A stretch of 64,000 bases of DNA, taken from assembly GCF_054482525.1 (NCBI RefSeq), contig NZ_CM137006.1. One strand, given 5' to 3'. Positions 13,954-33,027 of this stretch are shown one piece after another. The notes under the pieces are model-generated. The model saw only the letters and a program-made list of their open reading frames with translations, was not told where the DNA came from and searched no databases. How positions within the stretch are numbered: position 1 is the stretch's first letter; every line of letters starts with the position of its first letter. The position numbers and the translations under genes are program-made.

Positions 13954-14913
13954 TTAATAACAGTTCGGAATATCAGCATCAGTGAGTTGGGTTGTCGCCA
14001 GCACAATCTCACGTTCAAAGCCCTGTTCCAGCATGCGCAAGGCAATTTTAATGGCTTGTTCATGCATACCTTCTACTTTGCCTTTCTGCAAACCCTCCAA
14101 CTTCCCCTCCTGCCAACCTTCAATCTTACCCTCCTGCCAGCCAATTTGATGTCCTTCCTGCCGCAGCCGTTCAGCAATAGTCATTAATCTCTCCTTTTGT
14201 AGTGGTGAACGTTCGGCAATCTCCTCAATAAAACGGGTGAAACGGGAGGTATCGCCGCATTGCAGCAGATAATTAAACAGCGTTTGTAGCTGGCTGTCAT
14301 TAGTGAAGCCTCTAACCAAAAGCGTGGTGATCCTGTCGACCATACCGATTAAATCGCGGTCGCGAATATGCTTTTGAATCAGTTCCAGCAGAGCTATACG
14401 CCGATGTTGCATGATCTCATCGTCAGGTACGATGGTGATATCCACCAACGGAAAAGCTTCGGTGTACAACTGCCGGGCAAGTTGCGGATCGTCAAACTCA
14501 TCCAGCCAGTTGAGTGAGTACGGGTAAGGCGAGGTTTCGCCATGATAAAACAGCAACGGCACCACCAGCGGGACTCTGTCATAGCCTTTGTCCAGGTGAC
14601 GCTGCATGGCGGCAGTGGCATAGCGCATTAGCCGAAAAGCCATATTCTTTTCTGCAGAGCTTTGATGTTCAATCACGCAGTAGATATAACCGTCACCGTC
14701 GCTGGTTTCCACGGACCACAAAACATCCGAGTAGTAAGCGCGTAAACTTTTTTCAATAAAACTGGTGGGTTCCAGGCGTAAGGTTTGCAGGTTGCAAAGC
14801 TTGCGCAGCGGCTCTGGTAGATGTATTTCCAGAAAATCCCGTGCGGTTTCGGGTGTGAACATAAAGGTTTTAAACACCGCATCATGCGGGGAGGAGGTTG
14901 TTGATTCGGTCAT
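13954..14913 (-). CDS. rpnB: Recombination-promoting nuclease RpnB (YfaD; PD-(D/E)XK / YhgA-like)
   Basis: 319-aa ORF beginning [36 protein letters not shown]... with C-terminal [17 protein letters not shown] repeats. Confidence 0.85.
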
Positions 14914-29274: not shown

Positions 29275-32200
29275 ATGCGGATTATTTTTCTACGCAAGGA
29301 GTATTTATCTTTACTCCCGTCAATGATTGCATCTCTTTTCTCTGCTAACGGTGTCGCGGCGGCCATTGATTCATGTCAGGGATATGATATCAAAGCGAGT
29401 TGTCACGCCAGCAGGCAAAGCCTTTCAGGCATTACGCAGGACTGGAGCATCGCCGATGGGCAATGGCTGGTTTTTTCGGATATGACCAATAACGCCAGCG
29501 GTGGGGCCGTATTTTTGCAACAAGGAGCGGAGTTTTCTCTATCGCCAGAAAATGAAACTGGAATGACTCTGTTTGCCAATAATACTGTCTCAGGAGAATA
29601 TAATAACGGCGGGGCAATATTTGCTAAAGAAAACTCAACGCTGAATCTTACTAATGTTATTTTTTCCGATAACGTTGCAGGTGGCTATGGTGGCGCAATC
29701 TATTCTTCTGGTACTAACGATACCGGTGTCGTCGATTTAAGTGTCACTAACGCCGTGTTTCGCAATAACATCGCTAATGACGGCAAAGGTGGTGCAATTT
29801 ATACCATCAACAATGACGTCTATTTAAGTGAAGTTATTTTTGACAATAACCAGGCATATACATCAACAAGTTACAGTGATGGCGATGGGGGCGCAATCGA
29901 TGTCACCGATAATAATAGCGATATCACGCATCCGTCAGGTTTCACAATAATAAATAACACCGCATTTACAAATAACACTGCCGAAGGTTATGGCGGGGCA
30001 ATTTATACCAATAGCGTGACGGCTCCCTATCTTATTGATATTTCGATTGATGACAGCTACAGCCAGAACGGCGGCGTGTTAATCGATGAGAACAATAGCG
30101 CGGCAGGTTATGGGGATGGTCCTTCCACTGCGGCGGGCGGCTTTATGTATCTCGGCTTAAGTGAAGTTACCTTTGATATTGCCGACGGAAAAACGCTGGT
30201 TATCGGCAATACAGAGAATGACGGAGTTGTTGACTCTATTGCTGGTACCGGGGTAATCACCAAAACAGGTTCCGGCGATCTGGTACTTAATGCAGATAAC
30301 AATGACTTTACTGGCGAGATGCAGATAGAAAACGGTGAGGTTACCCTGGGTCGCAGCAACTCCCTGATGAATGTCGGAGATACTCATTGCCAGGACGATC
30401 CGCAAGACTGCTACGGTCTGACGATAGGGAGTCTTGATCAGTATCAGAATCAGGCTGAGCTAAACGTTGTCTCGACCCAACAAACTTTTGTGCACGCATT
30501 GACGGGCTTTCAGAATGGCACTTTAAATATCGATGCTGGTGGCAACGTTACTGTTAATCAGGGCAGTTTTGCTGGCACCATCGAAGGTGCTGGTCAGCTC
30601 ACCATTGCGCAAAACGGCAGCTACGTGCTGGCAGGGGCACAGTCGATGGCGCTAACCGGCGATATAGTCGTTGATGATGGTGCGGTGCTTTCACTGGAAG
30701 GCGACGCGGTAGATCTTGCCGCTCTCCAGAACGATCCGCAGTCGATCGTGTTAAACGGCGGCGTGCTTGATCTCTCTGATTTCGCCACCTGGCAGAGCGG
30801 CACATCATACAACGATGGCCTTGCAGTCAGCGGCAGCGGCGGTACGGTTATCGGCAGTCAGGATGTGGTGGATCTCGCAGGGGGCGACAATTTGCATATC
30901 GGCGGCGACGGGAAAGATGGCGTCTACGTGGTGATCGATGCGGGCGACGGGCTGGTTAGCCTGGCAAACAATAATAGTTACCTGGGCACCACGCAAATCG
31001 CTTCCGGTACGCTGGTGGTGAGCGACAACTCGCAGCTTGGCAGTACTGACGAAAACCGTCAGGTGATCTTTACCGATAATCAACAAAGCAGTGCGATGGA
31101 AATTACCGCCGACGTTGACACCCGCTCAGAGACGACAGGTCATGGTCGGGATATTGAAATGCGTGCCGATGGTGAAGTAATGATCGATACAGGCATGGAT
31201 AGCGAGTGGGGCGCACTGATGTCTGACAGCAGCGGGCAACATCAGGATGAGGGTAGCACATTGACTAAAACGGGGGCGGGTACACTGGAGCTGACCGCCA
31301 GCGGTACAACACAGTCAGCGGTACGTGTCGAAGAAGGCACCCTGCAAGGCGATGTTGCGGATATCCTTCCTTATGCTTCGTCGCTGTGGGTCGGTGACGG
31401 GTCAACGTTCGTTACTGGCGCGGATCAGGATATTCAGTCAATTGATGCTACTTCCAGCGGCACTATCGACATCAGCGATGGTACGGTTTTGCGCCTGACC
31501 GGGCAGGATACTTCCGTCGCCCTTAATGCCTCACTGTTTAACGGCGATGGAACGCTGGTGAATGCCACCGATGGCGTGACGTTGACAGGCGAGCTTAATA
31601 CCAACCTTGAAACTGACAGCCTGACTTATCTTTCCGACGTAACAGTTAATGGCAATCTGACCAATACGTCCGGTGCGGTCAGCCTGCAAAATGGCGTCGC
31701 TGGCGACACGCTGACGGTAAACGGTGATTATACCGGCGGTGGTACGCTACTGCTCGATAGCGAATTAAACGGCGATGACTCGGCAAGTGACCAACTGGTG
31801 TTGAACGGTAATACTGCTGGCAACACGACCGTGGTAATTAATCCCATTACGGGTATTGGTGAGCCGACATCTACAGGCATTAAAGTGGTTGATTTCGCAG
31901 CCGATCCAACGCAATTTCAAAACAGTGCGCAGTTCAGTCTGGCGGGCAGCGGCTACGTCAATATGGGAGCGTATGACTACACGCTGGTGGAAGATAACAA
32001 CGACTGGTATCTGCGATCACAAGAAGTAACGCCGCCATCGCCACCTGATCCCGATCCGACTCCCGATCCTGATCCCACACCGGATCCCGATCCAACACCC
32101 GACCCGGAACCTACGCCTGCTTACCAGCCGGTGTTGAATGCCAAAGTTGGTGGATATTTTAATAACCTGCGGGCGGCAAATCAGGCGTTTGTGATGGAGC

Positions 32201-33027
32201 GACACGATCACTCTGGTGGCAATGGTCAGACGCTGAATTTACGTGTTATCGGCGGAGATTATCATTACACAGCAGCGGGACAACTGGCTCAGCATGAAGA
32301 CACTTCTACGGTGCAGCTTAGCGGCGACTTGTTTAGCGGGCGCTGGGGCACGGATGGTGAGTGGATGCTTGGGGCGGTTGGTGGCTACAGTGATAACCAG
32401 GGCGACAGCCGCTCGAATATGACCGGAACTCGCGCCGATAACCAGAACCACGGTTATGCCGTTGGTCTGACCTCAAGCTGGTTCCAGCACGGTAATCAGA
32501 AGCAGGGGGCCTGGCTGGATAGCTGGCTGCAATACGCGTGTTTTAACAATGATGTTTCCGAACATGAAGATGGCGCGGATCATTACCACTCATCGGGGAT
32601 TATCGCCTCGCTGGAAGCCGGGTATCAGTGGTTACCGGGGCGTGGTGTGGTGATTGAACCGCAGGCGCAGGTGATTTATCAGGGCGTGCAGCAGGATGAT
32701 TTTACCGCCGCTAACCGTGCGCGCGTGTCACAATCGCAGGGTGATGATATTCAGACGCGGCTGGGTTTACACAGCGAATGGCGTACCGCTGTTCATGTCA
32801 TACCAACATTAGATCTGAATTATTATCACGATCCCCATTCGACGAAAATTGAAGAAGATGGCAGCACTATCAGTGACGATGCGGTGAAGCAACGGGGTGA
32901 AATAAAAGTGGGAGTCACGGGCAATATCAGTCAGCGAGTGTCCCTGCGCGGCAGCGTGGCGTGGCAGAAAGGGAGTGATGATTTTGCCCAGACGGCAGGG
33001 TTTTTGTCGATGACGGTGAAATGGTAG
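29275..33027 (+). CDS. yfaL: AIDA-I-type autotransporter adhesin YfaL (EhaC)
   Basis: 1250-aa ORF; Gly/Asn/Thr-rich beta-helix passenger, (PDPT)n linker, C-terminal beta-barrel ending ...FLSMTVKW. Confidence 0.88.
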   Translation: MRIIFLRKEYLSLLPSMIASLFSANGVAAAIDSCQGYDIKASCHASRQSLSGITQDWSIADGQWLVFSDMTNNASGGAVFLQQGAEFSLSPENETGMTLFANNTVSGEYNNGGAIFAKENSTLNLTNVIFSDNVAGGYGGAIYSSGTNDTGVVDLSVTNAVFRNNIANDGKGGAIYTINNDVYLSEVIFDNNQAYTSTSYSDGDGGAIDVTDNNSDITHPSGFTIINNTAFTNNTAEGYGGAIYTNSVTAPYLIDISIDDSYSQNGGVLIDENNSAAGYGDGPSTAAGGFMYLGLSEVTFDIADGKTLVIGNTENDGVVDSIAGTGVITKTGSGDLVLNADNNDFTGEMQIENGEVTLGRSNSLMNVGDTHCQDDPQDCYGLTIGSLDQYQNQAELNVVSTQQTFVHALTGFQNGTLNIDAGGNVTVNQGSFAGTIEGAGQLTIAQNGSYVLAGAQSMALTGDIVVDDGAVLSLEGDAVDLAALQNDPQSIVLNGGVLDLSDFATWQSGTSYNDGLAVSGSGGTVIGSQDVVDLAGGDNLHIGGDGKDGVYVVIDAGDGLVSLANNNSYLGTTQIASGTLVVSDNSQLGSTDENRQVIFTDNQQSSAMEITADVDTRSETTGHGRDIEMRADGEVMIDTGMDSEWGALMSDSSGQHQDEGSTLTKTGAGTLELTASGTTQSAVRVEEGTLQGDVADILPYASSLWVGDGSTFVTGADQDIQSIDATSSGTIDISDGTVLRLTGQDTSVALNASLFNGDGTLVNATDGVTLTGELNTNLETDSLTYLSDVTVNGNLTNTSGAVSLQNGVAGDTLTVNGDYTGGGTLLLDSELNGDDSASDQLVLNGNTAGNTTVVINPITGIGEPTSTGIKVVDFAADPTQFQNSAQFSLAGSGYVNMGAYDYTLVEDNNDWYLRSQEVTPPSPPDPDPTPDPDPTPDPDPTPDPEPTPAYQPVLNAKVGGYFNNLRAANQAFVMERHDHSGGNGQTLNLRVIGGDYHYTAAGQLAQHEDTSTVQLSGDLFSGRWGTDGEWMLGAVGGYSDNQGDSRSNMTGTRADNQNHGYAVGLTSSWFQHGNQKQGAWLDSWLQYACFNNDVSEHEDGADHYHSSGIIASLEAGYQWLPGRGVVIEPQAQVIYQGVQQDDFTAANRARVSQSQGDDIQTRLGLHSEWRTAVHVIPTLDLNYYHDPHSTKIEEDGSTISDDAVKQRGEIKVGVTGNISQRVSLRGSVAWQKGSDDFAQTAGFLSMTVKW

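Follow-up and report, generated by a model that had tools for sequence, protein, structure and literature searches.

An acidic, proline-rich repeat of variable length between the passenger and the translocator of the Escherichia coli autotransporter YfaL

Introduction

The yfaL gene of Escherichia coli carries a proline-rich tandem repeat at the junction between the passenger and the translocator of the autotransporter it encodes, and the length of this repeat differs between strains. We think it probable that the repeat specifies an acidic Pro-X spacer, an extended stalk whose length drifts by slippage and recombination and which does not act as a switch. Spacer repeats of this kind are already known in related proteins, namely TibA and pertactin R2, and no new mechanism is involved. 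A literature search found no prior description of yfaL linker polymorphism and none joining yfaL with the term ‘tandem repeat’; for the E. coli MLVA/VNTR CVN series, the published accounts that were compared give locus names without positions or primers.

Gene and domain layout

The window (the whole 64-kb stretch of DNA that was analysed) contains an open reading frame of 1250 codons plus stop at 29275–33027 on the plus strand, as given by the ORF list and its translation; the protein features described below all lie on this strand. Its assignment to yfaL/ehaC, encoding an AIDA-I-type classical (type Va) autotransporter adhesin, is supported, and the gene name given in the first-pass annotation stands. 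The NCBIfam equivalog NF007285 matches positions 1–1250 of 1250 with 2752.5 bits against a cut-off of 1459, and the neighbours of yfaL are nrdA on one side and ubiG–gyrA on the other, with ubiG and gyrA adjoining yfaL in all fetched loci. In the window, a 761-aa ORF lies upstream of yfaL on the minus strand. The gene is annotated at the matching place in 5,419 E. coli genomes.

A profile search of the 1250-aa ORF identifies the Pfam domains Chlam_PMP, PATR, AC_1 and Autotransporter, and together with the AF2 model (pTM 0.81) these give a domain order that fits type Va: a beta-helical passenger with repeats, an autochaperone (AC), a pore helix and a C-terminal beta-barrel. The literature figure for the signal peptide of K-12 YfaL is 28 aa. 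The autochaperone domain (Pfam AC_1, PF18883, E=2e-18) occupies aa 794–904 (31654–31986) and aligns with the corresponding parts of AIDA-I (4MEE) and IcsA (3ML3); in the AF2 model its beta strands are predicted to run on to the motif WYLRS (aa 911–915, 32005–32019; to model residue 135, pLDDT 83–91). An alpha-helical linker is predicted in the barrel pore at aa 956–970 (32140–32184; helix 177–191 of the modelled fragment, pLDDT 87–92), and this helix is homologous to the AIDA-I segment just before the barrel in 4MEE. The beta-barrel translocator spans aa 986–1250 (32230–33024), according to AF2 strands 207–470 and the alignment with 4MEE, with Pfam PF03797 (Autotransporter) at aa 989–1228 (E=3e-32).

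The repeat in the window allele

The whole linker lies between WYLRS and AYQP (aa 916–948, 32020–32118) and consists of QEVT followed by the proline-rich repeat. It is 33 aa long in this allele, is bounded by TGGTATCTGCG on one side and TACCAGCC on the other, and is the segment that varies between strains. Direct translation of the repeat gives the peptide PPSPPDPDPTPDPDPTPDPDPTPDPEPTP (aa 920–948, 32032–32118), in which 17 of 29 residues are proline. The 1250-aa ORF encodes, in its own frame, exactly the peptide quoted in the first-pass annotation; the span assigned to that peptide, 32036–32110, covers the right region but begins one base out of frame and cuts off a few codons at each end. 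Its placement between passenger and translocator is borne out, as the repeat follows AC_1 and WYLRS and precedes the helix at aa 956–970 and the barrel.

The unit had been described as PDPT and is instead the hexapeptide PDPDPT (18 nt), present three times and followed by PDPEPT (32044–32061, 32062–32079, 32080–32097 and 32098–32115), on a Pro-X dipeptide sub-period (6-nt GAYCCN). The repeat was also said to be perfect, which is true of the protein but not of the DNA, where pairwise identity between the 18-nt units is 12–15 of 18. TRF describes the linker as having a period of 18 with 3.7 copies and 79% matches, and exact direct repeats in the window allele reach 11 nt at most. The GAT-CCN codons generate a cluster of six GATC (Dam) sites at 32047–32092, spaced at 6 or 12 nt, which is also a 6-nt sub-repeat, GATCCN. 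The linker repeat is far beyond chance: GATCCNGATCC is present in three copies in the linker, against 0.1 expected in the window, and the linker scores highest of the only two tandem repeats in the window with a score of at least 50.

Across 21 distinct alleles proline is held at 248 of 251 register positions, with all four Pro codons in use, while the X residues vary and are most commonly Asp (133 of 230). An opposite-strand or RNA element was considered and rejected, since the minus strand across the repeat offers only short chance ORFs of 33–64 aa and RNA folding across it is ordinary (z = −1.36).

Length alleles across E. coli

When yfaL alleles are compared across E. coli, linkers of 21, 25, 27, 28, 29, 33, 35, 37 and 39 aa are found; the lengths differ, so the repeat number is clearly not identical in all strains, and the variation between strains that had been anticipated from the repeat is real. 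Three systematic, rank-spaced samples of 60 from 5,419 complete E. coli genomes, a collection skewed to clinical and laboratory strains, show that about 67% of linkers have 33 aa, 22% have 27 aa, 6% have 35 aa and 3% have 25 aa, the lengths of 21, 28, 29, 37 and 39 aa being rare. A 56-aa deletion also occurs once; loss of the whole linker is very rare, at one of the 5,419 complete genomes. For most genomes the linker length comes from the span of the alignment, with sequence for representatives only; counts by identity band were discarded as allele counts, the bands being blurred by SNP divergence of 5–8% and by truncated alignments.

In an alignment of 14 loci and the window, all indels fall within the GAYCCN run of the linker. 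The observed indels are without exception multiples of 3 nt, nearly all of them of 6 nt, and none breaks the reading frame in the sequenced alleles (about 30) or the sampled genomes (180). Slipped-strand variation, which the first-pass annotation had proposed, predicts what is seen between close relatives, namely exact gains or losses of 18 or 6 nt on flanks differing by 0–3 SNPs in about 1.4 kb. K-12 (33 aa) and CFS3246 (39 aa) are separated by +18 nt, with 0 and 2 SNPs in 685 and 700 nt of flanking sequence; K-12 and WP2-S18-ESBL-08 (35 aa) by +6 nt (GATCCT), again with 0 and 2 SNPs in the flanks; and O103:H2 (27 aa) and RM11911 (33 aa) by +18 nt, with 1 and 0. The 27-aa allele of O103 is also paired with a 21-aa allele on almost identical flanks. 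The presence of the 21-aa allele on two SNP backgrounds implies that 18 nt were lost independently. The longest exact repeat, of 17 nt at an offset of 18 nt, belongs to the O103-type family, which shows the series 21/27/33. The occurrence of several length alleles on almost identical flanks suggests recent slippage; the same traces would be expected of unequal recombination, or of gene conversion from one allele to another.

Variation in linker length is slow and largely lineage-associated. A set of 1,916 genomes, ranging from K-12 derivatives to O157:H7, reaches 99% identity or more to K-12 over 601 nt that include the linker, and targeted searches found about three slippage variants on this K-12-like background of at least 99% identity. 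Recombination also shifts linker alleles about: UTAK-18 (35 aa) and O103:H2 (27 aa) form a mosaic pair, 0.2% different upstream of the linker and 4.7% different downstream. K-12 and ETEC1749 differ by nine substitutions in about 100 nt of linker between otherwise identical flanks, which represents a conversion patch and not slippage. The possibility that length simply tracks the gene tree was rejected as the sole explanation, because the flank trees are mosaic and the length classes are scattered over them. Draft short-read assemblies often break at the linker; in Shigella sonnei, where an IS insertion is one candidate cause of the breaks, the contig ends consist of native yfaL sequence only and would stand about 15 nt apart.

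Structure of the linker and comparison with known systems

In the AF2 model YfaL aa 918–950 form a coil with no secondary structure (pLDDT about 50) between well-predicted domains, and the model thus shows a linker predicted to be unstructured, the low pLDDT being indirect evidence on its conformation. With proline at every second residue, no globular fold is possible.

The closest structural reference is the AIDA-I transport unit (PDB 4MEE), whose autochaperone and barrel are homologous to those of YfaL (E=4e-33) and follow the same order: an AC strand ending in WYLTS, a connector, the pore helix and the barrel. At the junction AIDA-I makes do with about 11 residues and lacks a Pro-X repeat, where YfaL has about 40, which identifies the repeat as an insert-like spacer. 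Alternating dipeptides of proline and acidic residues, as in YfaL, are also found in TonB, (Glu-Pro)n(Lys-Pro)n, and in trypanosome procyclin, (Asp-Pro)2(Glu-Pro)n, where such Pro-X spacers are extended, rod-like and protease-resistant; the likeness is one of composition or convergence only, as the proteins are unrelated and occupy different compartments. The precomputed matches of Pfam PF05887 (procyclin) to several YfaL-like homologues are due to their linkers.

Two autotransporters provide the nearest precedents. TibA, like YfaL of AIDA-I type, has a proline-rich domain (residues 627–677) that forms an extra segment, preceded by the junction/autochaperone region and followed by the C-terminal domain embedded in the membrane (PMC3835316). 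The TibA and YfaL segments, likened by description and not by sequence, share position and composition class, although that of TibA measures about 50 aa and that of YfaL is a regular PDPDPT/Pro-X repeat of 21–39 aa. YfaL aa 916–948 fit a TibA-type spacer, being proline-rich, predicted to be non-globular and situated between the end of the AC and the membrane-embedded domain. Pertactin of Bordetella resembles YfaL in having proline-rich in-frame repeats, R1 (GGxxP)n and R2 (PQP)n, in a beta-helical autotransporter passenger. The YfaL linker fits an R2-like class in that alleles differ in copy number and whole units change on otherwise identical backgrounds. The units differ (PQP and PDPDPT), R1 and R2 are described as passenger loops whereas the YfaL repeat connects the AC to the helix, and the variation in pertactin is tied to vaccine-era antigenic drift, with nothing comparable known for YfaL.

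Origin and role of the spacer

According to the explanation that we prefer, the repeat would encode an acidic (Pro-X)n spacer, with X mostly Asp or Thr, connecting the final beta strand of the autochaperone/passenger of YfaL with the alpha-helix predicted to plug the outer-membrane beta-barrel. The linker is most likely extended, polyproline-II-like and protease-resistant, and at about 0.31 nm per residue its 29 residues would make a stalk of roughly 9 nm, which may hold the beta-helical adhesin away from the barrel and the LPS core. If the requirement is for proline register and negative charge and not for an exact length, the length is free to drift. The codons supply short, imperfect direct repeats (exact matches of 11–17 nt offset by 18 nt, and copies of GATCC offset by 6 nt), at which replication slippage or unequal exchange would occasionally gain or lose 6, 12, 18 or 24 nt without breaking the frame. 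Linker alleles would then pass from lineage to lineage by homologous recombination, and E. coli as a whole would carry a polymorphism of linker length (21–39 aa) that is stable and heritable, with no on/off switching.

The linker could instead be purely a secretion connector, that is, a non-folding, slippery segment that, within the translocation hairpin, occupies the narrow pore of the barrel, delays autochaperone folding and later has no role, its length being neutral. This is possible, though we favour it clearly less than a stalk. Distant autotransporters with AC_1 and a barrel (28–37% identity, from Citrobacter, Bordetella and others) have an acidic Pro-X stretch at the same place, unrelated to that of YfaL in exact sequence, so that position and proline character are conserved and length is free (about 10–55 aa), just as it varies among natural YfaL alleles (21–39 aa). 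The wide protein search that supplied these homologues and extra alleles scored no more than 8,000 word-sharing candidates; its yield was therefore mainly fragments, and it was not used for frequencies. The short junction of AIDA-I is likewise functional, and a display anchor comprising YfaL 786–1250, linker included, exports heterologous passengers (PMC7138890). If a short connector were enough, however, there would be no need for the strict proline register and acidic X residues that nearly all genomes keep over 20–40 residues, and deletions of the whole linker would not be so rare.

It is unlikely that linker length and X residues are under diversifying selection that tunes exposure relative to O-antigen or capsule, or allows escape from antibodies. 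Selection of this type was proposed earlier for the proline-rich repeats of pertactin, the number of which varies among alleles (PMC8931430), and in yfaL the in-frame unit changes are recurrent and homoplastic, and substitutions between K-12 and ETEC1749 are locally enriched in the linker. Furthermore, yfaL is repeatedly among the positively selected genes of E. coli (PMC9110714), but the papers concerned do not place the signal in the linker. Against such tuning stand the single length common to two thirds of genomes and the 1,916 genomes that match K-12 at 99% identity or more. In laboratory K-12, moreover, the gene is reportedly expressed poorly (Roux et al. 2005), and a constitutive promoter was in use where its phenotype was seen. 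Slightly more doubtful still is a fuller proposal, in which 6- and 18-nt slippage, recombination and selection to match O-antigen or capsule thickness, or to escape antibodies, would make the linker a heritable ‘height dial’, or in a minor variant an acid-labile tether. If the proposal were true, projection of the YfaL passenger would be adjusted by up to about 5–6 nm; if the variant were true, the Asp-Pro-rich stalk would shed the passenger at gastric pH.

Asp-Pro is the most acid-labile peptide bond, and the linker has seven Asp/Glu-Pro bonds in 29 residues, with Asp dominant among X residues, exactly between the passenger and its anchor; nonetheless, it is very improbable that Asp-Pro bonds or the exposed coil are cleaved, by gastric pH or a surface protease, to release the passenger. 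Proline-rich segments are generally protease-resistant, hydrolysis of Asp-Pro is slow at 37 °C and pH 2, and Asp is freely exchanged for Thr, Ala, Asn or Gly in alleles and homologues. The literature consulted gives no sign of cleavage at the linker.

The least credible reading, that a hypermutable tract varies in the course of a single infection or switches the expression of YfaL, draws on the presence of a tandem repeat inside a surface adhesin gene and on draft assemblies that break at the linker, where mixed populations are possible in principle, but we reject an on/off phase-variation switch because the units are imperfect, exact repeats reach no more than 11–17 nt with no long perfect tract, the unit is a multiple of 3 nt within an ORF whose frame is never broken, and changes are rare between close relatives, with about three variants on the K-12-like background. 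The contingency loci of Neisseria and Haemophilus, like yfaL, have tandem repeats in surface-protein genes that change by slippage; the YfaL repeat differs from them on these same points, and is a length polymorphism.

Significance

YfaL/EhaC is a near-core and poorly understood E. coli adhesin that also serves, as residues 786–1250, as a surface-display anchor. Differences in yfaL length met in comparative genomics are an in-frame repeat and not errors. With its natural spacers of 21 to 39 aa, the allelic series already offers a test of the distance that the passenger must keep from the barrel, and it could guide the design of linkers in display vectors.

Identity and structure of the YfaL repeat

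The 1250-codon open reading frame (ORF) at 29275-33027 (plus strand) matches the NCBIfam equivalog for YfaL/EhaC over its full length (2752 bits, cut-off 1459), which bears out the gene assignment of the first-pass annotation. It is flanked by a 761-aa minus-strand ORF on one side and ubiG-gyrA on the other, as in all fetched E. coli loci, and strain PCN033 is 100% identical to the window allele over 361 nt. Pfam places the autochaperone domain AC_1 at aa 794-904 and the autotransporter barrel at aa 989-1228, and identifies passenger repeats of the Chlam_PMP and PATR types. The linker, defined here as the segment between WYLRS and AYQP (aa 916-948, 33 aa), contains PPSPPDPDPTPDPDPTPDPDPTPDPEPTP (aa 920-948), encoded in frame at 32032-32118 (plus strand). 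This is exactly the peptide quoted earlier; the coordinates then assigned to it, 32036-32110, lie inside the true stretch but are slightly short and begin one base off the reading frame.

The repeat had been described as perfect, with the unit PDPT. The unit is instead the hexapeptide PDPDPT, present in three copies that are flawless as protein (32044-32097, plus strand) and followed by PDPEPT as the last unit (32098-32115, plus strand). At the DNA level perfection is lost: the four 18-nt units are 12-15/18 identical, the longest exact direct repeat is 11 nt, and in Tandem Repeats Finder the array has a period of 18, 3.7 copies and 79% matches. A register of Pro-X dipeptides, with GAYCCN as its 6-nt motif, underlies the hexapeptide. 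The repeat is beyond chance, because it is the top of just two tandem repeats scoring ≥50 in the 64-kb window and because GATCCNGATCC occurs three times in the linker versus 0.1 expected. The other repeat (14086-14139) has a 24-nt period, 2.2 copies and 83% matches and falls within a minus-strand ORF of 319 aa (13954-14913). Minus-strand coding at the linker can be rejected, the overlapping ORFs being chance frames of 33-64 aa, and no unusual RNA fold is found there (z = -1.36). GAT-CCN codons give rise to six GATC sites (Dam methylation, SeqA or MutH) within 46 nt (32047-32092); in other yfaL alleles GAC is commoner and GATC sites number 2-5. The cluster probably arises as a side effect of encoding Asp-Pro.

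Position and constraint

Alignment of the last 471 aa of YfaL to the AIDA-I transport unit (4MEE) falls into two blocks, the autochaperone and the helix plus barrel. About 11 residues lead from WYLTS to the helix in AIDA-I, whereas YfaL has about 40. In an AlphaFold2 model of the C-terminal part (mean pLDDT 85.7, pTM 0.81), beta strands confidently reach WYLRS, aa 918-950 are without secondary structure (pLDDT ~50), and a helix (aa 956-970) precedes the barrel. By this alignment and the predicted coil, the repeat is a non-globular connector joining passenger and translocator, the location originally proposed for it.

In a set of 21 distinct linker peptides, 248 of 251 positions conform to the proline register. 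X is most often Asp (133) or Thr (67) and otherwise Glu, Ala, Ile, Val or Asn; the linker alleles use all four Pro codons. Distant AC_1 and barrel autotransporters with 28-37% identity (from Citrobacter farmeri, a Bordetella and metagenomes) all carry a Pro-X, mostly acidic stretch of ~10-55 aa in the same place, between NWYLxS and the [YL]RPE...AY helix start. On these comparisons, the linker is conserved in kind and position, and free in length and exact sequence.

Length variation among E. coli

A 361-nt query around the repeat matches 5,419 of 5,426 complete genomes, once per genome and always in yfaL. Length frequencies were taken from three queries with 60 rank-spaced genomes each, length being judged from alignment spans, and the three distributions are nearly alike. 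The 33-aa linker accounts for 40 of 60 genomes in every sample, followed by 27 aa (13, 12 and 13), 35 aa (4, 4 and 2) and 25 aa (2, 1 and 2); linkers of 21, 28, 29 and 37 aa are single rows, and the same genome with a 168-nt deletion recurs in each sample. Representatives of every length class were fetched and their linkers read directly. All their indels fall within the GAYCCN run and are multiples of 3 nt, nearly all of 6 (+6, -12, -18, +18, -24), with one of -3 in a CCG run. Strain 2014C-3011 carries an additional indel of 3 nt ~75 codons downstream, in the barrel region (GRWGDDDGEW versus GRWGDDGEW), which accompanies the 21-aa allele in that lineage and accounts for its span difference of -33 instead of -36 nt.

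Hypothetical alleles with one unit (18 nt, PDPDPT) added or removed were built as queries to find real counterparts. K-12 minus one unit is UTME-3 (27 aa); the O103 type, the 27-aa allele of O103:H2, occurs minus one unit (21 aa) in at least 17 genomes and plus one unit (33 aa, ending PIP) in at least eight. K-12 plus one unit is CFS3246 (39 aa), an exact 18-nt duplication with 0 and 2 SNPs in flanks of 685 and 700 nt. Over the same flanks, WP2-S18-ESBL-08 (35 aa) differs from K-12 by an exact GATCCT duplication and 0 and 2 SNPs, and RM11911 (33 aa) from O103:H2 by an 18-nt gain and 1 and 0 SNPs. Linked SNPs (PPSPP/CCG and PPLPP/CCT) place the 21-aa allele on two backgrounds, which implies that 18 nt were lost twice independently. 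Removing one unit from the 35-aa type gives MEI003 (29 aa). The exact repeat is longest in the O103-type allele (17 nt at 18-nt offset), which also has the fullest copy-number series. Such changes on near-identical flanks match what slippage between short direct repeats would leave behind. The comparison of yfaL alleles proposed at first pass thus yields a polymorphic copy number, and the sequences support the suggested proneness to slippage through whole-unit changes.

Recombination matters too. The gene is unusually polymorphic, its passenger diverging by as much as ~20% from strain to strain, and trees of the flanks are mosaic; among 14 loci (L001-L014) the passenger-side 1 kb (31000-32015) is up to ~20% different, versus about ≤6.7% on the barrel side (32125-33020). 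Certain pairs of strains hardly differ on one flank of the linker yet diverge by 4-5% on the other, as do UTAK-18 (35 aa) and O103:H2 (27 aa), 0.2% apart upstream and 4.7% downstream; breakpoints therefore lie at or near the linker. ETEC1749 has nine substitutions relative to K-12 in ~100 nt of linker (PPEPDPT...PDPAPVPVYQP), with flanks 0.0% and 0.2% different; this cluster looks like a short gene-conversion patch limited to the linker.

Variation is nevertheless slow: 1,916 genomes, K-12 derivatives and O157:H7 included, match K-12 at ≥99% identity across a 601-nt stretch that includes the linker, and only ~3 slippage variants were found on this background. Nor was any frameshift seen among the representatives read and the sampled spans. 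On this evidence an on/off switch is effectively ruled out, and a contingency locus is very unlikely.

Deletions, pseudogenes and contig breaks

Rare larger in-frame deletions remove the autochaperone end with most or all of the linker (VTB97022v; proteins P0009 and P0010). The 168-nt deletion of VTB97022v, in one of 5,419 complete genomes, has the junction AADPT/PDPDPT at DPT microhomology; metagenome-derived fragments have similar junctions (GAYDYT/PAYQP and FQN/PTPDPEPTP). Of two yfaL pseudogenes, in OkiPb01681 and E200086, one has an internal stop and the other a C-terminus cut by an IS3-family element just 3' of a 37-aa linker allele.

Many short-read drafts from NCBI, ENA and Logan, E. 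coli among them as well as hundreds of entries for Shigella sonnei, end contigs in or beside the linker (~32040-32125; ends of fetched loci L022 and L030, starts of L023, L025, L026 and L031-L033). Upstream fragments have variable ends (PPSPPNP, PPNPNPTP, TPDPDPTPDP, PPSPPDPDP), and downstream fragments begin at APTPAYQP or YQPV. Candidate causes are insertion of an IS, loss of coverage and a mixture of repeat lengths; the contig ends show no IS sequence, and those of S. sonnei would be just ~15 nt apart.

Known systems and proposed function

TibA has an extra proline-rich domain (residues 627-677) in the same place as the YfaL linker, where the junction region meets the membrane domain (PMC3835316). 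In pertactin, the copy number of the proline-rich repeats R1/R2 varies slowly from allele to allele; these repeats are not resolved in the crystal structure, and a polyproline-II (PPII) stalk role has been suggested for them (PMC8931430). YfaL, when expressed constitutively, is a biofilm-promoting adhesin (PMC3764049); its residues 786-1250, linker included, serve as a display anchor (PMC7138890, PMC13101318), and positive selection has been reported for yfaL (PMC9110714). We found no published account of yfaL linker length polymorphism in the literature.

The linker is likely an extended, polyproline-II-like acidic stalk, ~9 nm in the window allele, that would hold the folded passenger away from the barrel; from the shortest to the longest natural allele, stalk height would change by ~5-6 nm. 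It may also act as an unfoldable segment beside the pore helix in hairpin secretion. Alternative readings are adaptive tuning, a cleavage site or a neutral connector. The YfaL linker is a proline-rich variable spacer of a kind known in autotransporters, and a length polymorphism, not a switch, with a possible effect on function.
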